Assembly (NCBI GenBank): GCA_001819815.1
Contig: MHNO01000009.1
Location: 460 to 64,459 of the forward strand
Length of the DNA stretch: 64,000 nucleotides
Source: Candidatus Ryanbacteria bacterium RIFCSPHIGHO2_02_FULL_45_17b
Lineage (GTDB): Bacteria; Patescibacteriota; Minisyncoccia; Ryanbacterales; 2-02-FULL-48-12
Reading direction: 5' to 3'
Below, one piece after another: positions 1 to 62,425 of the stretch (positions are counted from its first letter, which is position 1; every line of letters begins with the position of its first letter). The notes below the pieces were generated by a model. The model had not been told where the DNA came from. It was given only the letters and a program-made list of their open reading frames with translations, and made no database searches. Both the position numbers and the translations under genes were made by a program.

Positions 1-2
1 GA

Positions 3-197
3 GGTCGCTCCAAAGTACGGAGCAAACGCATACCTGAGAATGTCTGTACCGATGACGAGCACGAGTGGGGAGAGATGGAGGGTGATGTGGAGCTCAAAGA
101 ATTTCCGTATTATTATAGTGATGTTAAAGCGTTTCTCGCGGCCAAAACCCTCTGGGAATGGGAACATGTGTTTTGGTTAAAAAAGATTGGATATTTG
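3..197 (+). CDS. 3' end of an unidentified gene; the gene enters from beyond the window start and no start codon lies in the window
   Basis: Open frame from position 3 with coding-like composition (...EFPYYYSDVKAFLAAKTLWEWEHVFWLKRLDI) ending at TGA 195-197. Not in the ORF track because it has no Met in the window. Confidence 0.3.
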
Positions 198-250
198 AGA
201 TAACTGCGGTCAGCAGAAAAATTGCCGTAAATAACGGCCATAAACGTATG

Positions 251-305: not shown

Positions 306-749
306 TCACTCTTCGGAGCTTCGAGAAATATGCTCCAAGAGCCAAGGGAGCTCTTCGATAGTGATCTTCGGAAACTCTATTTTTTGAACTGGGGATTTAG
401 CGGCCTCCGCCTTCTCCAGCTCACCACCACAAATATAATTGAGGAGCTCATGAAGCGCCCCGGGCGACATGTTGCAGACAAAAGTCTGTTGCTTTGGGGA
501 GGTCAGACTTCCTTCCCATGGGTCCCCCCACGTGTTGCTGACAACTTCCTGTCCTTTTGTAGATAGGTGCACCCTTAGACACTTGTTTTCACTAGGGTGC
601 GTGATAATAACCTCAATCAACCTTTCCCCTGCAATTGTTATCGTGCCCCTGGTAACTGCCTTACTCCCCCTTAGAGCTGCCTGCGCAATTTCTGTCATGT
701 GGGCTACCAGTGCCCCGAAACCAGGAAGGTTTGCGCTTTGGTTAACCAT
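306..749 (-). CDS. hypothetical protein (about 147 aa)
   Basis: Internal start MVNQSANLPGF... is preceded by a strong SD (AGGAGGT, 6 nt spacing). No recognisable motif. The track ORF 306..797 extends further upstream. Confidence 0.45.
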   Translation of the reverse strand: MVNQSANLPGFGALVAHMTEIAQAALRGSKAVTRGTITIAGERLIEVIITHPSENKCLRVHLSTKGQEVVSNTWGDPWEGSLTSPKQQTFVCNMSPGALHELLNYICGGELEKAEAAKSPVQKIEFPKITIEELPWLLEHISRSSEE

Positions 750-977
750 GTTGTACCTCCTAATTGTGAATTTGATAGCATCATACAGAACTAGCATAGT
801 CTTGTCAAGTACATAACTTTACCAAGCGGTTTGAAGCGAGCGGCAGCGGGAAATCACCATGGCTTTCTATCAGAATGCGCTGGAACTTGGTATCCCATTC
901 ATCGTCGTTGATACGCAACGTTTTTCTCCAAACCAATGCGCCGACATAATAATTGCGGCACTTGGAAACTAAGCAAA

Positions 978-1008
978 GGGCGATCAAATTGGTCGCCCCT
1001 CTTTTATT
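978..1008 (+). terminator. rho-independent terminator-like hairpin
   Basis: gggcga-tcaaattgg-tcgccc is followed by ctcttttatt. It sits just 3' of a 37-aa sORF (859..972) and about 30 nt upstream of the CYTH gene. Confidence 0.4.
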
Positions 1009-1036
1009 ACACTAAAAAAATTGTTACGATGATGTT

Positions 1037-1648
1037 ATGCAACAAATAAAATCTAAAAATATAGAGGTTGAAATTCGTGCGCGTCTTGATAATACAACCG
1101 AATTTAGAAAAGTACTTAATACTATTGGTGTAAAGCAAGTATCTTCGCTCTATGTGCATGATATCTACTTTTGTCTAAAAACCGCAAACAAAGTTGAGGA
1201 TGTAGAAATGAATAAAATCGGATCATATAGTCTTCGTCTGCGCAAATCAAAAAAGGAAGGAGAAAATGAACATATCACCATCAACACAAAGACCATTACT
1301 AATTATGGTGATCATAATGCATGGGAAGAACACGAGGTTGAGGTCAATGATTTTTTAGAAGCCGCTGAAATACTAGACACCACCGAATTTAAACCTTTCT
1401 TTGAATTAGAGAAAACGAGATATGTTTACGCATTGGATAGTATGGAGATATGTGTTGAAGATATAATTGATTTTGGCGGAGCGGTAGAAGTCGAGATTAT
1501 GTCATTAAAAGGAGAAGAAAATAGTGCTAAGGAAAAAATTTTGGATTTTCTTAACAAATGTAATATTAGTAATGAACATATAGTTCCTAAAAGTATTACC
1601 AATATCATTATGAAAGAACGCGCGTTCAAGCAGGAAATCACCATATAA
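1037..1648 (+). CDS. CYTH-domain protein (class IV adenylate cyclase / triphosphate tunnel metalloenzyme-like)
   Basis: N-terminal IEVEIRARL resembles the CYTH EIEhKhrl motif. Size about 200 aa. Function is a family-level guess. Confidence 0.5.
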   Translation: MQQIKSKNIEVEIRARLDNTTEFRKVLNTIGVKQVSSLYVHDIYFCLKTANKVEDVEMNKIGSYSLRLRKSKKEGENEHITINTKTITNYGDHNAWEEHEVEVNDFLEAAEILDTTEFKPFFELEKTRYVYALDSMEICVEDIIDFGGAVEVEIMSLKGEENSAKEKILDFLNKCNISNEHIVPKSITNIIMKERAFKQEITI

Positions 1649-1650
1649 AA

Positions 1651-1971
1651 ATCCCTCACGCAGATTGGAAATGGGGTCAGTCCCCATTATTAGTAAAGGC
1701 AGAAAACTGGAAATGGTCCAGTCTATGGAGAAGGGAATACGGTATCGTAAAAGACCAAAAACTCCTTTCCAAATGGCCAATAGAAATTCCTGATGAGTAT
1801 CTTCAATTTATCAATGAACCGCAAACCGCACCAGAATTAGAAGATATACGCCACAGTGTCATTAAAAGCAAACCCTACGGCGATGTTGCCTGGGTTGAAA
1901 AAATATCAACTAAACTCGGACTGGAACAGACACTTCATGCGCCAGGACGACCAAAAAAGAATGGGGACTGA
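1651..1971 (+). pseudogene. C-terminal remnant of an IS200/RayT-like HUH (Y1) transposase; no start codon and no HUH N-terminal domain
   Basis: Frame-1 translation ...LLVKAENWKWSSLWRREYG...LGLEQTLHAPGRPKK* resembles the conserved YPWSS...LG.E.F...RGRPRK C-terminus of COG1943 transposases. It begins directly after the CYTH stop codon with no Met. Confidence 0.4.
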
Positions 1972-2422
1972 CCCCATTATCCGGAAAATCCTTTTATTGA
2001 CTAGGGATCCTCGGGGTCTGGCTTCTTCGAATAAACTCGCGGGTATTCGGAAGAATGTGCCTAGGTCAGTCTCATCAAAAATCCCAGTCTATATTGAGTT
2101 TGCGCAAAGAGCACTACGATTATTGGAGTCTCATAGTCTTGTTTTGCTCCTCCGATACGAAGATCTCTGTGCAAATCCATCTGGCACAATCCGCAAGGTA
2201 TGCAACTTCTTAGGTGTAACCTACAATGAGTCAATGTTGCAATTCAAAGAGGACCGAGGGCATGTACTGAAAGGTAACCGTATGATATTTGACGAGAGAA
2301 ATACAATCTCTGAAGATACAAGCTGGATTGATATCCTGACAAGTAATGAGATTTTTTCACTTGTAGAGAATCAACAGCTAATATCCCTGTATCAAAAACT
2401 TGGGTACAAACTTACTAACTAA
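1856..2422 (+). pseudogene. N-terminally truncated sulfotransferase (PAPS 3'-phosphate-binding half only)
   Basis: LLLTRDPRGLASS matches the RDPRD...S 3'PB motif, and YEDLCANP...FLGV matches the sulfotransferase C-terminal signature. The 5'PSB P-loop (PKSGTT) is absent. The first ~40 codons overlap the transposase remnant in another frame. Confidence 0.5.
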
Positions 2423-2436
2423 GAGGAGGGCTGTTC

Positions 2437-3300
2437 ATGTTTGCAGTCCTGTCATATGACCCCCAGAAAGTATGGGTCGACCAGAAGGCAGGCATGGTTG
2501 TTGTAAGAAAAAGAACCATCCCCCATGAATATGAGGGGATACTACAGGCACACCAATATCTTACGCGATATCCCTTGAGTCTTCTAGTAAACGGTTCCAT
2601 CTACTCTGTTAAACCAGTCCCTTTAGTGTCCTGGGAAAATGAAAAGTCCTTACTCACCACACTATTTTGTGATGGTGAGAATTTAGAACACATTCTTAGA
2701 AAAACAAGTCTCGCAGAACGATCCTCATGGTTAATATTCTGCAAGGATTTATTTTCTAAGATGCGCTCGATAGGATTTCTATGGGGAGACTGCGCTCCAA
2801 GAAACATAGTCATCCAAGAAAAAAAGCGCTTAGTAAGGATAATGGATTTCGAGAGAGAACAATGCTTCCTAAGCACATCGGTTGATGAATCCAGCTTCCG
2901 TAGGTTCGTACGCAATTATGCGTACGAGGAGTTCTCATCGTTTTTATTCAAATCTGAACAGAAAAAGGTTTTCTCTGAGTCTCTTAAGGGGGAAACAATG
3001 GAACACATCCATTTAACCAAAATTACTTCTATGAGAAGACGCAGAATACTCGAGAAGCAATTCGGACGGAAAGAGGCTTACGCGGGGAGAGAAGTTGAGG
3101 ACGTTGAGGACATCATGGTATTCGCCGCTACACCATTTATGTTGGACGGAGTGGTATACTTCCCTATGGATTTTCTTGAAAAGATCGGGAGAAACGGAGG
3201 ACTAGATGCCTACACGCGAGTTGTTGAAAAAATCAGAAAACTCGCCGACACAAAGGATAGATTTCGGGAGCTTACGAAAGCTAGAGCAACTCTCCGATAA
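2437..3300 (+). CDS. protein-kinase-like fold protein (atypical kinase; Kdo/WaaP/RIO/APH-like)
   Basis: LWGDCAPRNIVI resembles the catalytic loop HGDLhpgNil, and IMDFE is DFG-like. An SD AGGAGGG lies 7 nt upstream of the ATG, immediately after the sulfotransferase stop. Confidence 0.55.
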   Translation: MFAVLSYDPQKVWVDQKAGMVVVRKRTIPHEYEGILQAHQYLTRYPLSLLVNGSIYSVKPVPLVSWENEKSLLTTLFCDGENLEHILRKTSLAERSSWLIFCKDLFSKMRSIGFLWGDCAPRNIVIQEKKRLVRIMDFEREQCFLSTSVDESSFRRFVRNYAYEEFSSFLFKSEQKKVFSESLKGETMEHIHLTKITSMRRRRILEKQFGRKEAYAGREVEDVEDIMVFAATPFMLDGVVYFPMDFLEKIGRNGGLDAYTRVVEKIRKLADTKDRFRELTKARATLR

Positions 3301-4048
3301 CTTTGTCCTTTTTTCTTCACCAGATGGTAGCGTATTTCTAGGTTCTCCTATGTATAACATCCTCATCGGGGCTAAGCACGAAAGATTTATACCGCGTAGT
3401 GGATTAATACTAGGAGAAGCACTAATCAGAAACAAACTGACTTCCAAGCATGGTCTCGATATCGGGACAGGAGAGAGTGGAATTCTAGCACATTGTCTAA
3501 TTGCGGCTGGAGTACAAACAGTTACTGCAGTAGATATAAAAGCTTCAGCTTTGCATTATGCAAAGAGCATGGACTTGAGAGCGGGGAGCATAACATGGAT
3601 AGAAAGCAACATCTTTGCTAAGCTCACGGTGGATGTTTTATATGACATAATAGTTAGTAATCCACCACAGATGCCTATGAGAACTCCTGGGGAACTGCAT
3701 GACTATGGGGGAGAGGATGGACGAGAAATCATCCTTAAAATCATAGAAGGCTGTTCTTCCTTCCTGACTACTAACGGACAGCTATACATCCTGTGCTTTG
3801 ATTTTCTAGGAGTTGATACCCCATATAATACCAGACCTTCCTTAATTGCTATCGCTGAGAGTATGGGCTTCAACTCCATAATCATATCTAGAAATCAACG
3901 CCGAGTGCGGAATCACGGGAAAACAAAAGAGAACATCGCTTGGATCAAGGAAGTATATCCTGGCTATGTATTTCGAGAGCTGGATGATGGAACTTTAATT
4001 CATGACGTTTTTGTTTTACAACTCAAACGCGTCAGTTTAGTCCCATAA
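3206..4048 (+). CDS. class I SAM-dependent methyltransferase (HemK/PrmC-like with an NPPQ variant of the (D/N)PPY motif)
   Basis: Motif I LDIGTGESGILA and motif IV IVSNPPQMP. The first ~48 codons overlap the upstream gene, so the real start may be the ATG at 3350 (MYNILIG...). Confidence 0.65.
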   Translation: MPTRELLKKSENSPTQRIDFGSLRKLEQLSDNFVLFSSPDGSVFLGSPMYNILIGAKHERFIPRSGLILGEALIRNKLTSKHGLDIGTGESGILAHCLIAAGVQTVTAVDIKASALHYAKSMDLRAGSITWIESNIFAKLTVDVLYDIIVSNPPQMPMRTPGELHDYGGEDGREIILKIIEGCSSFLTTNGQLYILCFDFLGVDTPYNTRPSLIAIAESMGFNSIIISRNQRRVRNHGKTKENIAWIKEVYPGYVFRELDDGTLIHDVFVLQLKRVSLVP

Positions 4049-4075
4049 AGGGAGATTCGTCTCCCTTTTTAATTT

Positions 4076-4564
4076 TTAATCAAAAGGAATTTGCTTGTAC
4101 ATAGCCAACGGGTAAGATTCATTTCTTAACCATTGATGAACAATAGCGAATGAACGAGAAGAGATAAATTCCTCTTTTGGGATACTGGCGATTTCCTCTC
4201 TCGTGAACCACTTGACTTCTATAATTGATTCTTGCCGCAAATCTTGATCTTCTTTCCTCGGGATAGCTGGCTTACCTTCAGTTGCTTCAACCAAAAACGC
4301 GAACAGAGCGCGGAATTTCGTTTCATCGGAGGAAATGTAAGCACCTAGAAAGTTTTTAACTTCAACATTCACCAAAGCCTCTTCTTTACATTCGCGGATA
4401 GTTGCTTCCAGAATTGTTTCATTCTCTCTGTCTCCGTATGTCCCCTGAATAATATTCCATAAAGGCCTATCTTTTTTCTTAATCTTCTCCTTGATGAACA
4501 GAGCCTTGTCGCCAACCTGATTAGTTACAAGCGCACCTACTTTAATTTTTATATCGTCAATCAT
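4076..4564 (-). CDS. NUDIX hydrolase
   Basis: Nudix box GTYGDRENETILEATIRECKEEALV (G x5 E x7 RE x2 EE). Likely start is the internal MIDDIKIKVGALV; the track ORF runs to 4630. Confidence 0.75.
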   Translation of the reverse strand: MIDDIKIKVGALVTNQVGDKALFIKEKIKKKDRPLWNIIQGTYGDRENETILEATIRECKEEALVNVEVKNFLGAYISSDETKFRALFAFLVEATEGKPAIPRKEDQDLRQESIIEVKWFTREEIASIPKEEFISSRSFAIVHQWLRNESYPLAMYKQIPFD

Positions 4565-4670
4565 AAACAGTATATTAACATAAAAGTACTGGCATAAAAG
4601 GCACTCTTGCGCACCACACATAGTTCGCACTCAAAGCTCTCCCAAACCTGTGCATACGTCGGAGATTTCT

Positions 4671-5360
4671 TTACAACTCTTTTGTTTTGGTATGCGAAAA
4701 ACTATTTGACAAATTAAAGTTTTTTAAATAAAGGGAGGACTTGGAAGAAATAAGTTGTGACGCTAGTGTTTTTGGATATTTTTGTAAATAGGCAGCAACA
4801 AAATCATACCCCAAAGTATAAGCTGTCCAACGAGGAATCCTCCTTACTACTGAACCATAGAACCATGCGTTATGATCATATGTGGACATATTCCATTCTT
4901 TAGAAGCTCGTTCTAAAAATATGTTCTTTTGTTTTTGAGTTAATGCAATAGACCACGATAGTGGATTTTTTCTGCCCGTTACCTCTATAGCAAAATGGTC
5001 GGCGAGTCCTTCAGATATTATGGCTTCAAATAATGTTTCTTTGTGTATAGGAGTACGGAAACGAATGGCATGGTTTATCTCGTGGGCAAGTATATAAGGA
5101 AGCTCTTTTTTAATTCCGTCTTGAAATTTTGAATTTCGTGGATCCAGTGAAATAAATACAACATTGGCACAGGGCGTATACCCTCCGATACCAGTTTCTT
5201 TGAAAGTCGCCCCAGGATTATTATAAAAAACTACATCAATATCCTCCAGTGGCACGAGCTTTTTTATTAACATCCCTATAGATTTTGTTACAGAGCACAG
5301 TTCTTCCACAAATGGATTTAAACCTTTTGAACTAGATAATATGTGCACGTTTATAGACAT
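4671..5360 (-). CDS. putative Zn-dependent peptidase (HExxH; DUF2268-like)
   Basis: HEINH motif in ...YILAHEINHAIRF. Size about 229 aa. The family assignment is from memory. Confidence 0.45.
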   Translation of the reverse strand: MSINVHILSSSKGLNPFVEELCSVTKSIGMLIKKLVPLEDIDVVFYNNPGATFKETGIGGYTPCANVVFISLDPRNSKFQDGIKKELPYILAHEINHAIRFRTPIHKETLFEAIISEGLADHFAIEVTGRKNPLSWSIALTQKQKNIFLERASKEWNMSTYDHNAWFYGSVVRRIPRWTAYTLGYDFVAAYLQKYPKTLASQLISSKSSLYLKNFNLSNSFSHTKTKEL

Positions 5361-5640
5361 GGAGAAACAACCATTTTATATCACCCCCTCTCTTGCTTGA
5401 TTACTCACGCGAATAAGTGTGGGTTTGAAGGATGGCCCATACTCCATTTGTAACCTAACATTTCCATCCTAGAATATCCACGGCACGTTATTCACGATTT
5501 TTACAACATATAGAACTCTCCCAAACCTACATAAGGGTGTACAGCGAAGGAAATTATTAGCTCATTCTCAAGGAGGAGAAAAATAAACACACAAGTCACT
5601 AATGGAGCAACTAACTCAATTTGGTCCTCTCAAAAATTCA

Positions 5641-5684
5641 TATAGGCTAAGCAACAATAAAGTTGCCTAGCCTATCTTTTTTTA
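5641..5684 (+). terminator. rho-independent terminator-like hairpin
   Basis: ataggctaagcaac-aataaa-gttgcctagcctat has one mismatch in a 14-bp stem and is followed by ctttttttat. It lies about 20 nt upstream of the pyrophosphatase-like gene. Confidence 0.5.
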
Positions 5685-5702
5685 TCCACTATAATAAAAA
5701 AT

Positions 5703-6080
5703 ATGCAGGATAATACTAAACAGTCAGGCAATTACGCTACACAATTTATCGGCAAAGAAGTAGAAATAATAATTGATCGACCCCTTCATTCGAAACATCC
5801 GAAGTATGGTTTTGTTTATGAGATCAACTATGGATTTATACCAAACACAAAGGCTCCAGACGGCGAGGGAATAGACGCATATCTTCTTGGCATCGATGAT
5901 CCAGTCGAGACTTATACAGGTAAATGCATCGCCGTCGTTCATCGCCTCAATGATGCCGATGACAAGCTTGTAGTGATACCGGTGTCACTTGGTGATGTAG
6001 ACGACGAAGAAATCCGAAGATCAACACATTTCCAAGAACAATTCTTCACTTCCGAAATTATTCGGGAAACAGATGAATAA
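5703..6080 (+). CDS. family I inorganic pyrophosphatase-like protein, N-terminally short and divergent
   Basis: EINYGFIPNTKAPDGEGIDAYLLG aligns to the PPase NYGFIPQT...DGDPLDVLV region. DADDKLVVIPV aligns to DEAGEDAKLVAVP. Only 125 aa, with DGDPLD changed to DGEGID. Confidence 0.55.
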   Translation: MQDNTKQSGNYATQFIGKEVEIIIDRPLHSKHPKYGFVYEINYGFIPNTKAPDGEGIDAYLLGIDDPVETYTGKCIAVVHRLNDADDKLVVIPVSLGDVDDEEIRRSTHFQEQFFTSEIIRETDE

Positions 6081-6127
6081 GAATAAGACCGAGAGTTTTT
6101 TTGCTCTCTGCCGTTTTTAATTAAAAT

Positions 6128-6463
6128 ATGAACATAAAGTATACAATTTGGAAAATAAAATCGGGCAAGCTGGAAGTTTGGAAAGCTTGGTGTCATGAAT
6201 TAATGACTACTCGTTACGAGGAGGCGCTTATTACTATTTCGGAAGAAAACTTAGTCCATGAGAAATGCGTTATTTTTGAAAAAGAAGGAGAAAATTATGT
6301 AATATATACACATGGAACAGTAGAAGGAAAAGCAAAAAAGAAAGCAAATATGGATCACGCAGTAAACAAAAAACACTTCAAGATAATGAAAGAATGTCTG
6401 GAGTATGTATATGATACTGGTTGGTTTGCACCTCTGAACGGGTATGAGCTTGAAAGAAATTAA
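6128..6463 (+). CDS. hypothetical protein
   Basis: 111-aa ORF with no recognisable motif and AT-rich island codon usage. Confidence 0.35.
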   Translation: MNIKYTIWKIKSGKLEVWKAWCHELMTTRYEEALITISEENLVHEKCVIFEKEGENYVIYTHGTVEGKAKKKANMDHAVNKKHFKIMKECLEYVYDTGWFAPLNGYELERN

Positions 6464-6597
6464 TTATGTTGTGCCAAAGATAGAGTCCTTGTGGACTAGG
6501 TTGCAATAAAAAACCAATTTTTGCAAGTTATTTCACTTATCCACAGCCTTTAGCACCGGCTTGTAAAATTTATTGATATATGGTATAATCGTGGCAT

Positions 6598-7326
6598 ATG
6601 GAAACAGCTACCCTTGTTAATTTCAAACAAAAATTTAACACCCCGCCCCCTGTATGGTTTAAGGATGTAAAAGAAGAAGCGTATAAAAAAATCACCACAG
6701 CGCCATTTGCGGAAGCATGCCGACGAGGCGACAAAGAAAGCATAAAAAAACTGATAGTTGGTTTGTGGCCTTTTGTTGATGTGTTTCCACGACTGGTAGG
6801 TCAAAAATATATGTATCTTTTTACTAATCCACGGTTGTACTTTCGACATGGACCACTAAACATGTTGTCACTTGCATCTAATACGGTTGTGTTTTTAAGA
6901 AGTATAGCGAGTGATGAAAAAAGTCATCGTTTGTTATGGCTTGATTCCGGATCTGCGGTTGGTTTGGAATATCCAGAAAATTATGCTCCCATCAGCCCAC
7001 AAACACAAGTTTGGAAAGATGGAGTTGCGAATGAAACTGAGCCTTCAGAAATGCTTTTTGGATACGTTGCCATTGAAATTATAGCGGAATCTGTAAGTAA
7101 AGATTTGATACACTCAGATATTTTTAAATCAACCCTCGGCGAAAAAGGAATGAAGTGGTTTCTAGTACACACCATTGATCATGGCGATATATCACATGAA
7201 AATCTAGAACTGCAATTAGCCTTAGCCTTTCATAGAAAACATGATGAAAACATTTCTGAAATTGCCGCACGTAAAATTATGAAAGTGGTGGATGATTTCC
7301 TCGCGTCAGCAAACGCGTGTGTATAG
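6598..7326 (+). CDS. heme-oxygenase-like fold protein (TenA/PqqC/CADD-type iron-containing redox enzyme-like)
   Basis: Helical protein with candidate metal ligands in ...YVAIEIIAESV... and ...LVHTIDHGDISHE.... Tentative. Confidence 0.4.
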   Translation: METATLVNFKQKFNTPPPVWFKDVKEEAYKKITTAPFAEACRRGDKESIKKLIVGLWPFVDVFPRLVGQKYMYLFTNPRLYFRHGPLNMLSLASNTVVFLRSIASDEKSHRLLWLDSGSAVGLEYPENYAPISPQTQVWKDGVANETEPSEMLFGYVAIEIIAESVSKDLIHSDIFKSTLGEKGMKWFLVHTIDHGDISHENLELQLALAFHRKHDENISEIAARKIMKVVDDFLASANACV

Positions 7327-7347
7327 GCTAACATATCTCATCTCTAG

Positions 7348-8994
7348 ATGACGTTTATAAACATCGTCGCTCTTACCGTCACGGCTATATATTTAATGCT
7401 AGGTGGTATCGTCTACGCACACAGCCGACGACAGATGAGTGAGATTTTTTTTGGGTTACTATCACTCTGTCTCACGGCGTGGGGACTTGCCACTTTTCTT
7501 ACTGTTTCAACTTCGCAATCAGCCTTACTCTTCAAAATTGGCATATATGCACACTATGTGGCGGGTAATCTTATATTTCTTAGCTTTTTTTGGTTTTCAG
7601 TTTATTTTCCGGAACGAACAAAACGCTCGCTTATACTGCCTCTTCTCATTACGCTTATTGATAGTGTTATTATTTTTGCCCTCATATTAAGTAATTTCTT
7701 ATTTACATCATTTTTTATTGATCTTGCAAATCAAAAACAAGTCATCTTTAACAATATTGGCTATACCCTCTATACCTTATGCACTTTAGCACTCTTTGTT
7801 GCAGGGACGATAATACTATTCAAAAAATATAAAAGACAACATGATGCTAATAAAATACCTATTCTTTACGTGTTTTTTGGTAGCATCATGGCAAGCGTCC
7901 CTGCGCTTATTTCAAATCTTATTTTACCTGCTTTTGGACAGTTTACCTTTTTTGCGATGGGCCCTATTTTTGGCATTTTTTTTGTAATTTGTATTGCTTA
8001 CGCCGTTTTTAAGCATAACCTTCTCAATGTAAAAATTGTTGCCACGGAGTTTTTTGTTTCTCTTATTATTCTCATTCTTGTTATTGAGGTATTTTCGGCG
8101 AATTCAATTTTGGAATTCGTAATAAAGACAATCACCCTTGCCGCGGTGTCTATTTTGAGCTATCTCATCATCCGGAGCGTGTTAAAGGAAGTACAAATCC
8201 GCGAGCAAATAGAACAACTTGCCGGAGATTTAGAAAAAGCAAATGAAGAACTTGCGCGCATAAACCAAGCAAAATCAGACTTTATTTCCATGGCTTCACA
8301 CCAATTAAAAACACCCTTGTCTATCATCAAAGGATATATTTCCATGACCCTTGAGGGAAGTTTCGGGAAAATAACCAAAATGACAAAAGACCAGCTGGAA
8401 AAAGTTTTCATTTCAAATGAACGGCTTATTTCTCTCGTGGAAGACTTGCTTAATCTTTCCCGCGTGGAAGAAGGCCGCATGAAATATGACTGGAGTGAAG
8501 AAAACATTCCGGACATCGTTCAAGAAACGGTAGAAGAAGTGCGCGTAACAGCGGAACATAAACACATTAAACTCATCTGGAAATCGCCAACAGAAAAACT
8601 CCGCGCCCGCGTGGATCTCAATAAAATCCGAAATGTTATTTTTAACATGCTTGATAACGCCATAAAATATACCGAAAAAGGATCAATCACGGTTGCCGTA
8701 ACACGACACGATACAGCCATTCGTGTTTCCGTAACCGATACCGGCAGGGGAATTTCCGCGCCGCAAATTCAAAAACTCTTTACCAAATTTACGCGCATAG
8801 TTGAAGGAAAAAGCAACCTTACGACGGCAGGTTTTGGGTTGGGACTATACGTTGCGCGGCTTATTGTGGAAGAACACGGCGGCCGCATTTGGGCTGAATC
8901 CGCGGGAATAGGAAAGGGAAGCACCTTTATTTTGGAATTGTCGACGGCAAACCAAGGAATTGAAAAAGGTGGGAAAAATGCTATATTGAAATAA
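7348..8994 (+). CDS. sensor histidine kinase with multi-TM N-terminal sensor
   Basis: About 8 predicted TM helices, then HisKA H-box MASHQLKTPLSII and HATPase_c G-boxes (TDTGRGIS, GFGLGLYVARLIVEEHGGRIW). No adjacent response regulator. Confidence 0.85.
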   Translation: MTFINIVALTVTAIYLMLGGIVYAHSRRQMSEIFFGLLSLCLTAWGLATFLTVSTSQSALLFKIGIYAHYVAGNLIFLSFFWFSVYFPERTKRSLILPLLITLIDSVIIFALILSNFLFTSFFIDLANQKQVIFNNIGYTLYTLCTLALFVAGTIILFKKYKRQHDANKIPILYVFFGSIMASVPALISNLILPAFGQFTFFAMGPIFGIFFVICIAYAVFKHNLLNVKIVATEFFVSLIILILVIEVFSANSILEFVIKTITLAAVSILSYLIIRSVLKEVQIREQIEQLAGDLEKANEELARINQAKSDFISMASHQLKTPLSIIKGYISMTLEGSFGKITKMTKDQLEKVFISNERLISLVEDLLNLSRVEEGRMKYDWSEENIPDIVQETVEEVRVTAEHKHIKLIWKSPTEKLRARVDLNKIRNVIFNMLDNAIKYTEKGSITVAVTRHDTAIRVSVTDTGRGISAPQIQKLFTKFTRIVEGKSNLTTAGFGLGLYVARLIVEEHGGRIWAESAGIGKGSTFILELSTANQGIEKGGKNAILK

Positions 8995-9036
8995 TTCGAT
9001 AGGGGGTCATCGAATGACGTATTATTATTTCAATCT

Positions 9037-10434
9037 ATGGAACAAAATCGTACCTATACCAAAGATATACTAAACAAGGAAGGCTCTGAAGTTACTCTCA
9101 TGGGGTGGGTTGATGTTCGGCGTGATCATGGGAAACTTCTTTTTATTGATCTGCGAGACCGCACGGGCACCGCGCAAGTGCTGTTTATGTCAAAAGATGC
9201 CGAACTCTATGCCAAAGCAAACACCCTGCGCCCCGAGTGGGTAATTCAAGTTACGGGCATAATCGGCAAACGTCCCGACGGCATGAAAAACACCGAGACC
9301 ATAACGGGAGATTGGGAACTCCAGGCAACGGAACTTATAATTTTAAGTGAAGCAAAAACACCACCTATCCCCCTAGACTCTGATGGCCGTGATATTGAAG
9401 AAGAGATGCGCCTCAAATATCGTTATCTTGATCTGCGCCGGCAACGCATGACACGAAACATTCGCCTTCGACATAAAGCAACCACACTGGTGCGAGAATT
9501 TTTGAATAATCAGGATTTTATTGAAATAGAAACACCCCTGCTCACTAAAACCTCGCCAGAAGGCGCGCGGGATTTTTTAGTTCCTTCACGCAAATACCCG
9601 GGTAATTTTTTTGCGCTTCCGCAGTCGCCCCAACAATATAAGCAACTGTTGATGATCGCAGGTTTTGAGCGCTACTACCAAATTGCGCGCGCGCTCCGTG
9701 ATGAAGATCCACGCGGAGACAGACAATACGAACACACACAAATAGACATAGAGATGTCTTTTGTAAACGAACAGGACGTGCGCGCAATTGCAGAAGAAAT
9801 GATGATACATGTGGTCGAAGGATGTGGAAAAAAAGTACTCCAAAAACCATTTCCTGTTTTTACCCATGAAGAAGCCATGAAAAAATTTGGCGCCGACAAA
9901 TTTGATCTGCGTACCGAAAAAGATCCCGATACGCTCGCGTTTGCCTGGGTGGTAGATTTTCCGCTATTTGATAAAGACGAAGAAACGGGACACATTACAT
10001 TTGCCCATAATCCGTTTTCCGCTCCCAAACCAGAACATGTAGAAAAACTGTTTGCCAGAGAAGATCTGGAGCACCTGTGCGCACAGCAGTATGATTTGGT
10101 CTGCAATGGCTATGAACTTGCCTCCGGGGGTGTGCGTATTTCTGACCCAATGATACAGCGAAAAGTATTCGAGATCATGGGGCTTACCCCCGAAGAAACA
10201 GAAGAGCGTTTTGGACACCTTATCGATGCATACAGCTATGGAGCACCGCCGCATGCCGGCATCGCACCTGGTCTGGATAGGCTTGTCATGATCCTCGCAA
10301 AAGAAACGGGCATCGCGGAAGTCATTGCATTTCCGAAAACAGGACAAGCCCGTGATCCCATGATGAACACACCTAGCCCTGCGTCAAAAAAACAACTGGA
10401 TGAGCTTGGCATAGAAATTAAAAAAACACCTTAA
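9037..10434 (+). CDS. aspS: aspartyl-tRNA synthetase (short form lacking the GAD insertion)
   Basis: Class IIb motifs FFALPQSPQQYKQLLM, FERYYQIARALRDEDPRGDRQYEHTQIDIEMSF, GGVRISD and PHAGIAPGLDRLVMIL. Confidence 0.9.
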   Translation: MEQNRTYTKDILNKEGSEVTLMGWVDVRRDHGKLLFIDLRDRTGTAQVLFMSKDAELYAKANTLRPEWVIQVTGIIGKRPDGMKNTETITGDWELQATELIILSEAKTPPIPLDSDGRDIEEEMRLKYRYLDLRRQRMTRNIRLRHKATTLVREFLNNQDFIEIETPLLTKTSPEGARDFLVPSRKYPGNFFALPQSPQQYKQLLMIAGFERYYQIARALRDEDPRGDRQYEHTQIDIEMSFVNEQDVRAIAEEMMIHVVEGCGKKVLQKPFPVFTHEEAMKKFGADKFDLRTEKDPDTLAFAWVVDFPLFDKDEETGHITFAHNPFSAPKPEHVEKLFAREDLEHLCAQQYDLVCNGYELASGGVRISDPMIQRKVFEIMGLTPEETEERFGHLIDAYSYGAPPHAGIAPGLDRLVMILAKETGIAEVIAFPKTGQARDPMMNTPSPASKKQLDELGIEIKKTP

Positions 10435-41869: not shown

Positions 41870-43780
41870 TTATTGTTGCCGTTTTATGTCAGCAACCTTT
41901 GCAATCAAATCTTCATAATCTACTCCATCAGCTTCTTTGTTTAGCTCTTGGTATATAGTCTCCATTTCCTGTTGTTGGTCTTTGGAAAGCCTTGGTACAT
42001 CAAGATTAAAAATACCCAATTCTTTATCATTCTTAATCTCTTCCCACAGACGTATCACTAATTTTCCTTTCACATATCGGCCAAAGCCCGTGAGAAGAAA
42101 AGTATCTATTTTAGAAGTCTGCGCTTCAAAAGAAAACATTCCCCGGATAAGTTTGTGCGCTTCTTCTGGAGCTACCGTCTTGAGCTTTTTAAGTACCTCT
42201 TTTCTAACCAAAAAATTATATGGATAGTTTGCATCTAATAACTCATCAAAATATAGATATTCATAAACTCTGTACATTTCCTTGAGATCAGTAATGCTAA
42301 TTTCAATACTGTACTCTTTTTGTAGCTTTTCCTTTGCACGAATAAGTCCTTCCTCATCTTCTTGATCCAAAAAATCATTGATACCTTCTAATGTGTTTTT
42401 AATAACATCTTTAGAAAACCCTTTTTCAACCATTGATGCAAACAATGAGGCGGTATTGTAGATCCCGTCATGAGTGATGGGATCTGACTGAGGTATATAT
42501 CTATCTGCCGTTTTTTCACTAGCCAAAAAATGTGTTACTCCCGAAGGAAATGTATGTGTCGCCAAATCCGCCACCGTAGTTCCTAAAAACCTCTTGGGTT
42601 TACCAGGCGCGTGGTCATGAACCGCATATTGAAAATACATCAACTTCTCTATGTCCCCCATAATATTTAACACCTCTGCATAATCAAACGGCGCGACTTT
42701 CGCAATTTCACCGGATACGTTGCGGCCTAGCTTTTTGGAGTGACTATTTTGTAAAAATTCCTCCGCCTCAAGAGATGACTCAAAAGCGGCAAAATAAGGA
42801 CGCGTTAAAAATCCTAACGAGCTCTTTATTTCCTGAAGTATTTTTTTATTCATTTCTTCCTGCGTTGAATCATCTCTGTCGAAATCCTTACTCAACCGTT
42901 CCTTGAGCGTTCGCAAACCTTCCATATAATAAGCAAGCGTATTGTGTAGCCAAACCATTGTTTCGGGATTACTACGCAAATATCCAGATACTGCATCATC
43001 TGCTAATATATCCATGGTCGCCTCATTGTTGGCGATGAGCAAGTCAGTCCAATACATACTTTTTTCAGAATCTTCTAGTGGATTTGGCATAATAAGCAAC
43101 GACTCATCCATCCAATCTGCTTTGGATATCTCAAAACCATCACCCATGCTTGTATGTTCCCGCAAATATGCCGTTACATGTTCTGTATCAACAAGATCTT
43201 CCAGTACTATATGATCTTTCAAGCGATTAAAACGGTCGCCTGGCGCTAAGCCTTGATTGATATGAATGGGCTCATGGAACCTATACATAAGACGATTCAA
43301 TACTACCAGCGTTTTTTCAAATGCTGTGGGATCTTTATGATTCTCACTGGCACCGACAATAGACTCCAGAACTTTTTCCCCATCTATGGTTTTGGTGCTT
43401 AATGTAAAACCTTCTTTTTTGCCAAAATGCGGCTTAAAGGGTCCATTCTTTAACAAATCCGGCATTGCCGAAACTTGTTGGCTAAATATAACATGGGAAC
43501 CAAAATACATTTCTTGGGGCGCAAACCCAAAAGCTCCCTCCTTATTCAGCTCAACAACTGACTTACGTCCTGCAAATTCCCAAACCGCCTGAACATACCG
43601 CTCCACTTCTTCATCAGGAATCTCTGCCTCTAAGAGCATACGCCTCGTAATCGAAAGCGGACTATTTAGTGATTCCTTTGCTATATCTCGCTCTACTTGT
43701 TCTGGTAATCCCACAAGAACAGAATCTGGAAACTCCTCAACTTCAACATCAAAGTGAAATTTTTTTCCTTCTGGAGACAT
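41870..43780 (-). CDS. large hypothetical protein (636 aa) co-operonic with lysS; possible HD-type metal-dependent phosphohydrolase signature
   Basis: Long ORF 17 nt downstream of lysS. NSHSKKLGR...(41 aa)...AVHDHAPGKP resembles the H...HD spacing of dGTPase/SAMHD1-type HD domains. Tentative. Confidence 0.55.
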   Translation of the reverse strand: MSPEGKKFHFDVEVEEFPDSVLVGLPEQVERDIAKESLNSPLSITRRMLLEAEIPDEEVERYVQAVWEFAGRKSVVELNKEGAFGFAPQEMYFGSHVIFSQQVSAMPDLLKNGPFKPHFGKKEGFTLSTKTIDGEKVLESIVGASENHKDPTAFEKTLVVLNRLMYRFHEPIHINQGLAPGDRFNRLKDHIVLEDLVDTEHVTAYLREHTSMGDGFEISKADWMDESLLIMPNPLEDSEKSMYWTDLLIANNEATMDILADDAVSGYLRSNPETMVWLHNTLAYYMEGLRTLKERLSKDFDRDDSTQEEMNKKILQEIKSSLGFLTRPYFAAFESSLEAEEFLQNSHSKKLGRNVSGEIAKVAPFDYAEVLNIMGDIEKLMYFQYAVHDHAPGKPKRFLGTTVADLATHTFPSGVTHFLASEKTADRYIPQSDPITHDGIYNTASLFASMVEKGFSKDVIKNTLEGINDFLDQEDEEGLIRAKEKLQKEYSIEISITDLKEMYRVYEYLYFDELLDANYPYNFLVRKEVLKKLKTVAPEEAHKLIRGMFSFEAQTSKIDTFLLTGFGRYVKGKLVIRLWEEIKNDKELGIFNLDVPRLSKDQQQEMETIYQELNKEADGVDYEDLIAKVADIKRQQ

Positions 43781-52133: not shown

Positions 52134-52757
52134 CTATGTCTGTTTTGGTAAAAAAAACAATCTCCGAAGATATGCATCCCCTCCCATTTTCTCTGTAACA
52201 AAATAAAGCGCCTCGTATCCTAGTTTTAAATCAGTCTTAAGTAAGGCAAGAACTTCTTCACAATCATATGGATATACCCACACACTATTCTGCAGTTTTC
52301 GAAACCCTATATTCCGAAGTTCAACACGAAGATGATTTCTTATCTTACGACGTTTTTCTATTACATCAAACATCACTATACGCCATTTACCATCCCATGG
52401 TTCAGGTGAGTTTTTATAAAACTGAAGTTTTTCAAAGCGCATTCTTCCTTTCTTGGTAAGTCGCACATGGGGTGTTTCTCCTTCCACATGATCTAGAGCA
52501 AGAATACCATCCTTAATAAACCTTTGCAGAGTCTCGCTTATCCGGTAACGCGGATTATTTTTTTTCCAACGTTTTGGTTCTACGTATTTGAGTATCTGAA
52601 CAGCATTGGGTGCCAAAATGGCAATACTCACAATCCCAGCAATACCTATAATACCCAACACCACATCGCTAACGGGCAATTTTTCGTTGTATTCCGGCAA
52701 TTGAGGAAGAAACTCATTACTCCAACCGCTTATCAATTTTTTCTTATGTTCGTACAT
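52134..52757 (-). CDS. membrane-anchored wHTH plus Cas2-like (VapD/Cas2-fold) domain protein; PaaX-like architecture
   Basis: TM helix (VVLGIIGIAGIVSIAILA); wHTH (RYRISETLQRFIKDGILALDH...VRLTKKGR); then WRIVMFDVIEKRRKIRNHLRVELRNIGFRKLQNSVWVYP, which resembles the Cas2 core YDV...R.RV...L...G.RlQ.SVF. Start taken at MYEHKKK, after the right IR. Confidence 0.55.
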   Translation of the reverse strand: MYEHKKKLISGWSNEFLPQLPEYNEKLPVSDVVLGIIGIAGIVSIAILAPNAVQILKYVEPKRWKKNNPRYRISETLQRFIKDGILALDHVEGETPHVRLTKKGRMRFEKLQFYKNSPEPWDGKWRIVMFDVIEKRRKIRNHLRVELRNIGFRKLQNSVWVYPYDCEEVLALLKTDLKLGYEALYFVTEKMGGDAYLRRLFFLPKQT

Positions 52758-52775
52758 GATGAATAGAATCAAAAT

Positions 52776-52820
52776 ATAATTCCTAAAATAATGAACGACC
52801 GTCGATATATTTAGGAATTT
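52776..52820. repeat. right terminal inverted repeat (about 45 bp)
   Basis: ataattcctaaaataatgaacgaccgtcgatatatttaggaatttt. The same peptide KFLNISTVVHYFRN appears in ORF-track translations on both strands (ORFs 51998..52198 + and 52134..52841 -), which confirms the inverted repeat. Confidence 0.7.
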
Positions 52821-52895
52821 TTTATAAATATATCGTACCATGAAAGCTCAACAGGTTGAAACAAGAAAAGCGGCTTTGGAAAGCCGCTTGCGATA

Positions 52896-53213
52896 CTATA
52901 CCACTTGTTCAAGAATAACCCACTCACTAAATGTGCCTCGTTTCTTTGCTTTCTTTTTCCGCGCGTTGTCCACTTCCTTAAAAAAAATCTTATCAACCTT
53001 ACAAAGCAAACGCACAACCTCTAATATATCCGCGAGTTCGCCCAATTTTCCTTCTTTCGTTTTTGCGTCCGCGTATTCCCGCACTTCCTCCCATAATTTT
53101 TCTACTGCATAATTGCGGCGTTCACCCGGAATTGCAATTCGACATGTCGGTGTCTGTCCCTTTTCTTTTATGATACGGGGAATCTCGTTTCGAACCAGCT
53201 TGTTGTATTTCAT
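52896..53213 (-). CDS. MazG-like nucleoside triphosphate pyrophosphohydrolase (PRA-PH-like)
   Basis: MKYNKLVRNEIPRIIKEKGQTP...LWEEVREY...ELADILEVVRLL matches the KLVRDKIPEII...ELADVLEV small all-alpha NTP-PPase family. Confidence 0.6.
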   Translation of the reverse strand: MKYNKLVRNEIPRIIKEKGQTPTCRIAIPGERRNYAVEKLWEEVREYADAKTKEGKLGELADILEVVRLLCKVDKIFFKEVDNARKKKAKKRGTFSEWVILEQVV

Positions 53214-53230
53214 AAAGGTTCCTTCCTGTT

Positions 53231-53467
53231 TTACTTTTCATCCTCCACTATATATCGAAACCGCGGGCCTTTGTAGTTATATTCCGGCATGTCTACTTCT
53301 TCCAAAAACATTTCTTTCGGTCGTATCTCAATGCGAAACTCACCGTATAGGGGCACATACAAAACCATCGGCTCTCGTGTTTCGTGATGGCATCCCTCGC
53401 CGATTACCAAGTAGTCCTTTCCTTTATAGTGCCGATAGCGCCCTTTTTTTATTTCTGGCACAATCAT
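53231..53467 (-). CDS. DUF1653-family small protein
   Basis: YRHYKGKDYLVIGEGCHHETREPMVLYVPLY resembles the DUF1653 core. Confidence 0.55.
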   Translation of the reverse strand: MIVPEIKKGRYRHYKGKDYLVIGEGCHHETREPMVLYVPLYGEFRIEIRPKEMFLEEVDMPEYNYKGPRFRYIVEDEK

Positions 53468-54186
53468 CTTTTATAAATCTTTTGGATATCTGATACCCGA
53501 CCTGCCTGACCGAGTGTATAATCATCTTGCACTACATACAAACGCCTGTCGTGAGTAGAAAAATATGCGTTTGTTTCATTCTCTTTTGTTGCATCTTCCT
53601 CGGTCTTTGGACCTGTAATAATTGTCGGCTCAATATTTATGGTTGAGAAAACTATATCGCGCATCTTATTCATTGATTCTTCATAGGCATCCCAGTAGTA
53701 TTCTTCGGTTATTGAGCTGTCAAATCGTGGATACTGCCCACCTAAAAAGACAATATCGATTGATCCTTCTATTGATTGTTCCTTTAACGTCGTGAGACAT
53801 TCAGCTAAATTAACGCTAAATTTTTCCTCAATTTCTTCCACAAATGTTGCTCCGGGATTTTGGTGAGACATGAAAGATATGTTTTCTCCTTCCCTGTTTC
53901 TACCTACGGCAACTATACCAAGACAGATAAAGTATCCTTCCGAATATTTATCTTTACTGTCAACAGGAGAAATTGCATATGAGCCATCGTCGCAACCATG
54001 CTTCATATCTCTTTTTTCTAGTTCGCCTTGTGTCGCATGCCAATCTATATTCACCCCCTCCTTTTTTATTTGGTCTATTTTTTCTTTGGACTCGGGAGAT
54101 AGTGTATCGGGATTTTCAAAGCAGGCAAATATGACTTTATCAGCCTGCTCAACATGAGATTCTCCATTAAATTCAGGTGATTCCAT
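53464..54186 (-). CDS. hypothetical protein (240 aa, acidic)
   Basis: ORF in the accessory patch. Start overlaps the DUF1653 stop (ATGA). No motif recognised. Confidence 0.4.
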   Translation of the reverse strand: MESPEFNGESHVEQADKVIFACFENPDTLSPESKEKIDQIKKEGVNIDWHATQGELEKRDMKHGCDDGSYAISPVDSKDKYSEGYFICLGIVAVGRNREGENISFMSHQNPGATFVEEIEEKFSVNLAECLTTLKEQSIEGSIDIVFLGGQYPRFDSSITEEYYWDAYEESMNKMRDIVFSTINIEPTIITGPKTEEDATKENETNAYFSTHDRRLYVVQDDYTLGQAGRVSDIQKIYKR

Positions 54187-61454: not shown

Positions 61455-62069
61455 TTATAATAACCCTTTTACTGCTTCCTGTATCGATTTTTTTATCTCT
61501 CCCCATTTAGTTTGTTTTATCATTATAGGATCCGGTTCGCTATCCGCATCAATAAAATACGTTATACTTTTTAGTATATGAAGTTTGTTGTATTTGATAT
61601 CTTTGTACTTCTCCTCAAAAAAATTAATAAGCGCGGGAAGTCCGTATTCCTGCATCAAGAAATAAATATCAACAAAATCTTTTTTACTGCCACGAGATGA
61701 AACAGCGTCTATTTTCATGGCAGCTATGTCGCGAGCGTCCGCAAGCATAATCTTCTCAAATGAAATAAGCGGATAGGTAAGATTGTAATCATAATGGAAG
61801 AAACTTACGCGAACATCATCAAGGATGCCATTTAATGTGGTATCGTCTTCACTTGTTACCGTGAAGGTTCCAGCTTGAGAAAGTTCTTTTTTAAGCACCG
61901 TGCCGTCAAATCGTTTTTGAGAAAAAAAATCCAGATCTACGGACTCGCGATGACCAAGATGAAGCGCCAATGCCGTGCCGCCCACAAGATAAAAATCATT
62001 GATGAAATTGCATGCACCTACCTGCGCAAGAACGCCCCCTGTTTGCCTATTGATTGCTTTGGGAAACAT
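61455..62069 (-). CDS. AbiEii/DUF1814-like nucleotidyltransferase (type IV toxin-antitoxin toxin family)
   Basis: FYLVGGTALALHLGHRESVDLDFF is the conserved AbiEii N-terminal NTase motif (GGTAL...HR.S.DLDF). Confidence 0.6.
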   Translation of the reverse strand: MFPKAINRQTGGVLAQVGACNFINDFYLVGGTALALHLGHRESVDLDFFSQKRFDGTVLKKELSQAGTFTVTSEDDTTLNGILDDVRVSFFHYDYNLTYPLISFEKIMLADARDIAAMKIDAVSSRGSKKDFVDIYFLMQEYGLPALINFFEEKYKDIKYNKLHILKSITYFIDADSEPDPIMIKQTKWGEIKKSIQEAVKGLL

Positions 62070-62415: not shown

Positions 62416-62425
62416 ACATATGTAA

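Follow-up and report, generated by a model that had tools for sequence, protein, structure and literature searches.

GGGGWSAS inverted repeats that flank RayT-like genes have been described as TIRtrons or TIRYTs (Di Nocera et al. 2013, PMC3733652). TIRYTs were later placed mostly in subclass 2.1 of the TnpA-Y1 transposases, where they are reported to carry a C-terminal helix-turn-helix (HTH) Pfam domain, i.e., Bac_DnaA_C, HTH_23 or HTH_28 (Quentin et al. 2018, PMC6006769). In REPIN/RAYT systems and REPtrons (Bertels & Rainey 2011, PMC3116915; Nunvar 2010; Ton-Hoang 2012) two inverted hairpins form the mobile unit, and a single-domain Y1 transposase is presumed to act on it in trans. IS200/IS605 elements and PATEs belong to the same HUH/Y1 superfamily (PF01797) and include non-autonomous deletion forms bounded by end hairpins. 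A 314-bp relative of these systems, resembling a miniature inverted-repeat transposable element (MITE), lies in the stretch of DNA analyzed here (the window), 64,000 nucleotides of Candidatus Ryanbacteria bacterium RIFCSPHIGHO2_02_FULL_45_17b (contig MHNO01000009.1, positions 460 to 64,459; assembly GCA_001819815.1). The DNA around it (1000-7330) had been taken, in a sequence-only reading, for a horizontally acquired island undergoing decay. It is better described as accessory, variable and carrying MITE-linked damage, and not as a proven horizontally acquired island in general decay. The reading favored here, and probably the correct one, is that a variable region riddled with MITE copies, containing a truncated conserved gene cassette, lies beside a core block formed by a heme-oxygenase-fold gene and a histidine kinase gene. 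The region is of an ordinary kind, a plastic accessory zone of a Candidate Phyla Radiation (CPR) genome, of which the MITE family and the cassette are the notable features.

Sequence upstream of the window was taken from MHNK01000010.1 (GCA_001819735.1), a contig of a Rifle aquifer Candidatus Ryanbacteria (Parcubacteria/CPR) metagenome-assembled genome (MAG), on which the window lies at ~8137-72136. Locus L002 is part of this contig; coordinates given without a locus are those of the window.

The 314-bp element and its parent

1667-1980, plus strand: MITE-like element, 314 bp, with hairpin terminal inverted repeats (TIRs) at 1670-1688 and 1960-1978

The element is bounded by two hairpins, each with a 7-bp stem: AATGGGG-TCAGT-CCCCATT at the left end (1670-1688) and AATGGGG-ACTGA-CCCCATT at the right end (1960-1978). 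The inverted arms extend to 22 nt (1670-1691 and 1957-1978) and are 95% complementary, with a spacer of 271 bp. An open reading frame (ORF) occupies most of the interior (~1690-1971, with WKWSS at 1708 and HAPGRPKK at 1936), and its stop codon falls in the right hairpin. It codes only for the C-terminal tail (~90 aa) of a RayT-like protein, with neither the HUH motif nor the catalytic Tyr. A startless C-terminal transposase fragment had been reported here, and the remnant is indeed non-functional; however, because it is repeated at a length of 314 bp with hairpin ends, it is not a one-off decayed gene, but one copy of a multi-copy MITE.

Three further whole copies are present in L002 (3479-3791, 4855-5168 and 6884-7199), and the four complete copies are 313-316 bp long, 95-98% identical, set in unrelated flanks and sharply ended at the hairpins. 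The 3' end of a fifth copy forms the start of the MHNK contig, ~60 bp upstream of the gene for tyrosyl-tRNA synthetase (TyrRS). All copies have the same orientation, and the five copies and two solo hairpins fall within ~9.7 kb, for the most part before the window begins. L002 contains 10 hairpins in 20.9 kb, compared with 0.05 expected, and no such hairpin was found in the remaining 62 kb of the window. No target duplication was found at the copies, which have in common only GGA before the left hairpin and the outer tandem repeats described below, and the Rifle assemblies examined did not differ by insertions. Short length, absence of a transposase, inverted repeats, multiple copies, unrelated flanks and a related autonomous element were all found, as for MITEs; judged by its sequence, 1667-1980 is a non-autonomous derivative and not a TIRtron itself.

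The remnant tail is 57% identical to a 176-aa PF01797 (Y1_Tnp) protein on locus L007, where a RayT-like gene of 225 codons lies between inverted hairpins, the right one of which holds its last codons and stop. The Rifle contig L084 carries the exact left hairpin of the MITE, followed by an intact Y1 N-terminal domain in which the HUH motif reads PNHWHLVL and the Tyr lies in RYVERN; from position 5872 this contig is 98% identical to MITE positions 29-177. Relative to the full-length element on L084, ~432 bp of the interior is deleted from the MITE, and both catalytic motifs are gone. As L084 shares both the hairpin and the 98%-identical stretch, the MITE is an internal-deletion derivative. The parents on L084 and L007 have the HUH motif and catalytic Tyr of a Y1 transposase, whereas the window copy does not. 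A composite parent protein of 225 aa scored 69 bits against PF01797, 75.2 bits against the NCBIfam RayT model NF047646 (below its cutoff of 80) and 22.6 bits against the IS200 model NF033573 (below its cutoff of 55), and its best match in the PDB was E. coli TnpA-REP (4er8).

The hairpin motif, GGGGTCAG, matches GGGGWSAS, and because it does so around a RayT-like gene the parent is classed as TIRYT-type. The parent is therefore filed as a putative TIRYT/TIRtron-type element and the window copy as its MITE. As in the described TIRYTs, a RayT-like Y1 HUH gene lies between GGGGWSAS inverted repeats, the end of the gene and the 3' TIR overlap, single and clustered TIRs also occur as a repeat family, and the protein exceeds the length of classical RAYTs by virtue of a C-terminal tail. 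Unlike the described TIRYTs, the host is a member of the CPR (Ryanbacteria; the word 'Parcubacteria' is absent from PMC6006769), and the window copy is a multi-copy, 314-bp deletion form with only the C-terminal 90 codons between its TIRs.

The paired inverted hairpins, the single-domain Y1 transposase presumed to act in trans and the match of the parent to TnpA-REP are shared with REPIN/RAYT systems. However, the hairpins here lack GTAG/CGTC tags, the 271-bp spacer is transposase-coding rather than short and non-coding, and the copies are, as far as visible, locally clustered rather than dispersed. Classical REPIN/RAYT membership was ruled out by the RayT score (75.2 against 80), the lack of tags and the 271-bp spacer. 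With IS200/IS605 elements and PATEs the family shares the PF01797 superfamily, deletion forms bounded by end hairpins and the lack of an evident target duplication, but its end hairpins are true inverted repeats rather than same-strand subterminal structures, and there is no tnpB; membership of IS200/IS605 was ruled out by the NF033573 score (22.6 against 55).

What appeared to be a decayed CPR transposase belongs to a MITE family that looks active and derives from TIRYT/TIRtron Y1 elements, a class that has been little studied. As the same community contains a candidate autonomous parent, the family provides a concrete system for asking whether TIRYTs mobilize their TIRs. The full-length copy would mobilize the MITEs in trans, via their hairpins on single-stranded DNA, and MITE copies in direct repeat would promote deletions and rearrangements by homologous recombination.

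The two solo hairpins are both of the right-end type (L002 782-985 and 2208-2224). The first of these ends a 67-aa ORF directly after TyrRS, the last 20 residues of which (…EQTFYAPGRPKKNGD) resemble the RayT tail, and from this likeness the ORF is taken to be a more degraded remnant of a related element. The MITE copies differ mostly synonymously in the transposase frame (pN/pS 0.10-0.15; e.g., 10 synonymous and 5 non-synonymous differences), and one deletion junction is common to all of them. The synonymous bias could have arisen by gene conversion from intact copies, by selection acting on the tail peptide or because variants were mis-assigned; in assemblies L001 and L002 the variants are distributed differently among the copies. 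A weaker reading is that the retained C-terminal peptide could be expressed and regulate the transposase in trans.

Immediately beyond the hairpins are degenerate short tandem repeats, on the right (CCATTT)n or (CATTAC)n and on the left (GAAAAT/GGAAAT)n (L002 992-1040, 5167-5210 and 7198-7225; L084 5370-5416; L009 575-610). The left and right repeats are reverse complements of each other and lengthen the hairpin at its foot; successive rounds of cleavage and rejoining, or slippage, may have left them behind. The generic hairpin AATGGGG-WCWGW-CCCCATT abounds in metagenome contigs, most of them with a high guanine plus cytosine (GC) content (L036-L155). It often occurs in doublets 27-49 nt apart, in one case forms a triple array with a 39-nt period (L140), and sometimes flanks RayT homologues (L106 1904/2589, L067 1118), which suggests a widespread TIRYT-associated repeat family. 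As it is so widespread, mostly in high-GC contigs, the generic hairpin says little about this organism. The TCAGT loop was present in only four of the generic-hairpin loci, and the element itself only on L084; the exact left-end hairpin was not found in viral contigs.

Sulfotransferase truncation and the adjoining cassette

1985-2422, plus strand: sulfotransferase 3' fragment, aligning to residues 156-298 of the 312-aa orthologue on L168
2437-3300, plus strand: protein-kinase-like protein (Bud32/RIO-like minimal kinase) with a C-terminal extension of ~90 aa
3206-4048, plus strand: MTS-family (HemK/Mtq2-like) S-adenosylmethionine (SAM) methyltransferase with an NPPQ motif (PF05175, 8.6e-10)
4047-4068: terminator-like hairpin between the convergent methyltransferase and Nudix genes
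4076-4630, minus strand: Nudix hydrolase, convergent conserved partner of the kinase-methyltransferase pair

The sulfotransferase fragment matches only positions 126-216 of the 216-position Pfam model, in which LLLTRDP...SS is present. About 155 N-terminal codons are missing, including the 5'-phosphosulfate-binding (5'PSB) loop, the lack of which had been noted in the sequence-only reading and was borne out; the L168 orthologue has PRSGST at residues 12-17. Homology to sulfotransferases starts at 1985, 5 nt past the end of the MITE at 1980, and on the other side the CYTH gene stops at 1648, 19 bp before the left end of the MITE at 1667. The 5' half of the sulfotransferase gene was not found in the 71.5 kb searched (window and upstream sequence). 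The truncation would have arisen by insertion of a MITE into the sulfotransferase gene, followed either by recombination between copies in the same orientation or by an adjacent deletion; the 5' half would thereby have been lost at the MITE boundary, and the kinase-methyltransferase-Nudix core still looks intact. At the left edge of the window a second gene was probably truncated at a MITE. This ORF matches only positions 110-176 of the 247-position PDDEXK_1 model and starts 35 nt past a MITE copy:

L002 7234-7767 (3' part at window 1-203), plus strand: 177-aa PD-(D/E)XK/Cas4-like ORF (PDDEXK_1, E = 1e-3)

The kinase-like protein has no Pfam match itself, and a word-indexed protein search returned two matches, as for an ORFan; that status was overturned by an exhaustive HMMER search, in which the family comprised 131 clusters at 50% identity among 1.84 billion representatives. 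The closest homologues are at most 45% identical, and no relative was found in viral contigs. The kinase motifs are Lys25, Glu31, WGDcAPRN (116-123) and DFE (137-139); in the family alignment D137 and E139 are invariant, and K25, N123 and F138 nearly so. A profile built from 51 members matches kinases in the PDB with E down to 5e-4, and members match RIO1, ABC1, APH and Pkinase. An AlphaFold2 (AF2) model with a predicted local distance difference test (pLDDT) score of 96.6 gave 223 PDB kinase matches at E <= 1e-3, and its core superposes best on Bud32/PRPK (TM-score 0.44-0.54, root-mean-square deviation 3.8 Å). The protein is thus predicted to have a bilobal kinase-like fold. Unlike the Bud32/PRPK and RIO kinases, it has no KEOPS partners here, and it has an extra C-terminal domain of ~90 aa.

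The methyltransferase contains LDIGTGESG and VSNPPQ, and scores far under every equivalog cutoff. By its SAM site and NPPx motif it is classed as a HemK/MTS-type enzyme. It shares with HemK and Mtq2 the MTS fold and the NPPx motif typical of N-directed enzymes, but the motif here is NPPQ and not NPPY. The deposited annotation gives a 232-aa protein starting at 3350; alignments with orthologues begin near residue 22 of the ORF that opens at 3206, and the conserved N-terminus begins by ~3269, inside the kinase gene. The methyltransferase gene therefore probably overlaps the 3' end of the kinase gene, as at other loci, and the 3350 start is probably too late. The genes recur on unrelated metagenome contigs, at the following loci:

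L168: full-length 312-aa sulfotransferase, kinase and MTS methyltransferase with overlapping ORFs, then convergent Nudix
JGI 3300075153: kinase, methyltransferase, Nudix (minus strand)
ERZ27296333: kinase, methyltransferase, Nudix (minus strand)
L161: kinase, methyltransferase

Identity to the L168 proteins is 48% for the sulfotransferase, 36% for the kinase, 40% for the methyltransferase and 47% for the Nudix hydrolase. Five longer members of the kinase family are fusions of the kinase domain with an MTS methyltransferase domain. The overlap, the conserved order and the domain fusion tie the minimal kinase to the N-methyltransferase. The distribution of the cassette is patchy, and the contigs on which it is found are of very different composition.

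To our knowledge, no characterized system matches the pairing or fusion of a kinase and a methyltransferase with a sulfotransferase and a Nudix hydrolase. PADLOC recognized no known defense system, its matches being confined to generic domains (mad2 in the methyltransferase, PDC-S07 in the Nudix hydrolase). As judged from folds and motifs, the cassette would phosphorylate, N-methylate and, ancestrally, sulfate one common substrate. A tentative proposal, possible but not regarded as probable, is that the four genes constitute an undescribed, sparsely distributed modification pathway built around the kinase-methyltransferase unit, of which the Ryanbacteria would carry a natural sulfotransferase-less variant made by a TIRYT-derived MITE. 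The substrate may be one small hydroxyl- or amine-bearing metabolite, or the end of a macromolecule. The conserved kinase-methyltransferase(-sulfotransferase)/Nudix cassette is a tractable target for biochemistry.

Extent and origin of the variable segment

6561-6589, plus strand: best sigma-70-like promoter match of the region, TTGTAA-17-TATAAT with TG (consensus match only), at the boundary between variable and syntenic DNA
6598-7326, plus strand: heme-oxygenase-fold (HO-like; UndA/CADD/TenA-like) protein with invariant DExxH, ExxxE and H/H/H/E
7348-8994, plus strand: seven-transmembrane (7TM) histidine kinase, its N-terminal half still low in GC, syntenic with the HO-like gene

The HO-like protein was modelled with AF2 (pLDDT 85.6), and the top Foldseek matches of the model were UndA (4wx0; E = 2e-4, TM-score 0.71), a TenA homologue, CADD and PqqC (TM-score ~0.7). 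The model predicts the seven-helix HO-like fold. E107, H110, E160, E164, H191, H195, H200 and E204 are invariant in 15 homologues and are candidates for the 3-His/3-carboxylate metal ligand set of the heme-oxygenase-like diiron oxidases (UndA/CADD/BesC type). The ~15 homologues all appear to belong to Parcubacteria.

In four relatives (L156, L157, L158 and L160) the HO-like gene (60-70% identity) is followed by genes for the 7TM histidine kinase, the aspartyl-tRNA synthetase (AspRS) and ScpA, and on the longest relative contig the order continues with ScpB, peptidase S11 and MraY. As it is syntenic with the histidine kinase and AspRS genes in all four, the HO-like gene is not island cargo, and gene order identifies it and the histidine kinase gene as a vertically inherited core block. 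The other cargo genes were not found upstream of the HO-like gene in the 8.5 kb available on L156, the 2.3 kb on L158 or the 1.4 kb on L157. In these three loci the HO-like gene is adjoined by a divergent gene for an 826-aa membrane protein. A 57%-identical homologue of that protein, encoded by an 831-aa gene, lies immediately beside the full-length element on L084, a contig that ends ~30 nt of repeat sequence short of the start of the MHNK contig.

Across both contigs the layout would be: the 831-aa gene, the full-length TIRtron, TyrRS, ~8 kb rich in MITEs, CYTH, the MITE, the cassette, DUF2268, the pyrophosphatase (PPase)-like gene, DUF6176, the HO-like gene, the histidine kinase and AspRS. 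This arrangement is plausible but unproven. A variable segment of at least 15 kb would thus separate the 826-aa and HO-like genes, which are direct neighbors in related Parcubacteria, and would have been seeded with a TIRYT/TIRtron element and at least four or five MITE copies. Its right part ends at ~6463. The boundaries proposed in the sequence-only reading do not hold: the right one, at 7.3 kb, includes the core-syntenic HO-like gene, the last variable gene ending at 6463, and to the left of 1.0 kb the MITE-rich variable segment reaches as far as TyrRS, at least 8.6 kb before the start of the window. The expected absence of the block from relatives was found for the genes at 1037-6463, which are missing at the equivalent position of the relatives examined, but not for the HO-like gene, which is conserved there.

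The arrangement of the HO-like (possibly diiron) gene directly before the histidine kinase gene recurs in the window (6598-8994), L156 (8537-10935), L158 (2378-4799) and L160 (95-2559), and in L156 the two genes overlap by 10 nt. The pair could sense redox state, O2 or a metal; no response regulator was seen near it. In ERZ28563625 (L003 position 10939) the substitution T6972G introduces a stop into the HO-like gene at the invariant Tyr125, which is either a strain-level pseudogene or an assembly error. AspRS (9037-10434) is 84% identical to that of an unclassified MAG and 73% identical to that of a Sungbacteria MAG (L010 and L011 compared), but only 54-62% identical to that of the syntenic relatives, in which MraY is 78% and the histidine kinase 55-69% identical. 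These values may reflect gene replacement or strongly uneven rates.

The AT-richness claimed for 1000-7330 was confirmed. The GC content of this stretch is 0.389 (38.9%), compared with 0.440 (44.0%) for the whole window and ~0.46 at 9-20 kb; in a scan with 577 sliding 6.3-kb windows, by which the composition is not uniform, it came out among the lowest. Eight genes at 1037-6463 have a mean GC of 0.386, against 0.447 for the 47 other genes (Mann-Whitney p = 3e-5). The low-GC zone continues to ~8.5 kb, inside the histidine kinase gene, and equally low values are found in genes at 41870-43780, 52134-54186 and 61455-62887; the core TyrRS gene, just upstream of the window, has a GC of 0.356. Atypical composition is therefore not restricted to the block, the HO-like, histidine kinase and TyrRS genes being equally low. 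In all three relatives measured, the HO-like and histidine kinase orthologues are 4-7 GC points below their neighbors. As these two genes are low in GC in the relatives too, low GC is no marker of foreign DNA, and as they are intrinsically so, the compositional island overshoots the true variable block. The former (~1000-8500) overlaps, but differs from, the block defined by synteny, which runs from upstream of the window to ~6463. Within the MITE-rich stretch upstream of the window GC is 42-54%, and 57% in one ORF, and the variable segment as a whole is heterogeneous (0.33 to 0.57). Caution is warranted in calling islands in CPR genomes from composition, since low GC here follows gene type (lineage-specific, membrane) and not foreign origin. 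The 57% ORF (180 aa; L002 2776-3318; GC at third codon positions 0.62) lies between a solo hairpin and a MITE, has no family match and is an outlier toward high GC, in the direction opposite to the island.

Classical genomic islands also have atypical composition, accessory genes that are missing from relatives, mobile-element sequences and gene fragments. Unlike in such islands, the composition and synteny boundaries disagree here, and an essential aminoacyl-tRNA synthetase lies inside the variable segment. The DNA of the block matched no plasmid or phage and no viral contig; neither an integrase nor flanking attachment repeats were found, and the only tRNA gene of the window, at 36.4 kb, is not adjacent.

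Three other explanations were weighed. The one that survives best, although it is considered unlikely, involves no transfer: the segment would be native, lineage-specific DNA under weak constraint and AT-biased mutation, subject to rearrangement and loss in a fast CPR lineage, with the MITEs incidental. That would agree with the equally AT-rich state of the clearly vertical TyrRS, HO-like and histidine kinase genes, with the presence of an essential TyrRS inside the 'inserted' segment, with a block that is fixed in the Rifle assemblies examined and hardly varies among them, and with kinase homologues no more than 45% identical, so that there is no recent donor. It accounts less well for a cassette that is patchy, limited to 131 clusters and carried on contigs of very different composition, or for the heterogeneous GC of the segment (0.33-0.57), and the adjacency of the 826-aa and HO-like genes in L156, L157 and L158 is broken only here.

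A single horizontally acquired island at 1.0-7.3 kb, brought in by an IS200/RayT transposase and now decayed with its cargo eroding, is improbable. It is already contradicted by the conserved gene order around the HO-like gene and by the presence of the element in several copies: the remnant is a repeated MITE with most of its copies outside the proposed island, and the low GC by which the island was recognized as the lowest stretch also occurs in syntenic genes and TyrRS. The cargo is indeed absent upstream of the HO-like gene in relatives, the sulfotransferase is truncated, and the HO-like gene has a nonsense variant in one assembly. All ten gene calls of the sequence-only reading were reproduced in place. 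However, eight of nine cargo ORFs are intact, and the general decay that it had proposed was not found: only the sulfotransferase is clearly broken, and the others retain their family motifs, the PPase homologue lacking several canonical catalytic positions. Nor was horizontal acquisition supported, as there is no phage or plasmid similarity and the nearest kinase homologues are at most 45% identical. The genes form at least three transcription units on both strands, with only one conserved cassette among them. Of the proposed small-molecule or nucleotide-modification island, part of the cargo is indeed a coherent modification cassette. Finally, multi-gene cargo would be foreign to Y1/RayT-type elements, none of which is known to us to carry it.

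The least probable explanation, an assembly artefact in which collapsed or mis-joined 314-bp repeats produced a chimeric sulfotransferase truncation with the 5' half elsewhere, is suggested by the several metagenome contigs that start or end inside the repeat and by the two assemblies that give different variants to the same copies, but MHNK, ERZ28563803 and ERZ28563625 agree base for base over all four complete copies and their flanks (possibly from shared reads), read pairs can bridge a repeat as short as 314 bp, and the 5' half was not recovered from the 71.5 kb.

Several points weigh against the favored reading of a MITE-riddled variable region beside a core block. For none of the MITEs was a transposition event, an empty site, a strain polymorphism or a target-site signature found. 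The composite 225-aa parent has the ~90-aa tail, but no C-terminal HTH or Bac_DnaA_C domain was detected in it (Y1_Tnp was the only match in a Pfam scan at E <= 1). The relatives are distant (AspRS 54-62%, histidine kinase 55-69%), and the absence of the cargo from them could reflect loss or rearrangement. The left flank is on a separate contig, L084, and its join to MHNK was made through the repeat and not observed. All assemblies are short-read metagenome assemblies in which copy variants differ and several contigs break inside the MITE, and so copy number and the exact junctions across repeats could be partly mis-assembled. The chemistry of the cassette is deduced from folds and motifs alone.

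Remaining genes of the variable block

306-797, minus strand: 163-aa hypothetical protein, GC 0.49, left of the compositional drop
1037-1648, plus strand: CYTH/class IV adenylate cyclase-like triphosphate tunnel protein (PF01928, 1e-16) with N-terminal EVEIR
4671-5360, minus strand: DUF2268 predicted Zn peptidase, HEINH
5703-6080, plus strand: family-I PPase homologue, 125 aa (Pfam, 32.9 bits)
6128-6463, plus strand: DUF6176, last gene of the variable block

The CYTH protein scored 59.4 bits against the NCBIfam cyaB model TIGR00318, just over the cutoff of 57.95. The DUF2268 protein has a 28%-identical paralogue upstream of the window. The catalytic set of family I PPases comprises E20, K29, E31, R43, Y55, D65, D67, D70, D97, D102, K104, Y141 and K142 (E. 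coli numbering). Only the core of the 125-aa homologue aligned with PPases from the PDB: it has KYG in place of KYE and DGEGID in place of DGDPxD, and lacks the R43 loop. The protein stops before the Y/K pair, and the full catalytic set is therefore not present.

An Rfam search of 800-9100 (gathering threshold; E <= 1) returned nothing meaningful. The DUF2268 and PPase-like genes diverge from an intergenic region of 342 nt (5361-5702) that contains a hairpin with a perfect 14-bp stem (5642-5675), followed by a T-run on the minus strand; it has no Rfam match and a folding z-score of -2.3. Further along the window, at ~20-23 kb, the coding strand switches from plus to minus near 22 kb, and the GC skew is persistently negative from there. 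This convergent arrangement could lie at a replication terminus or at the breakpoint of an old inversion.

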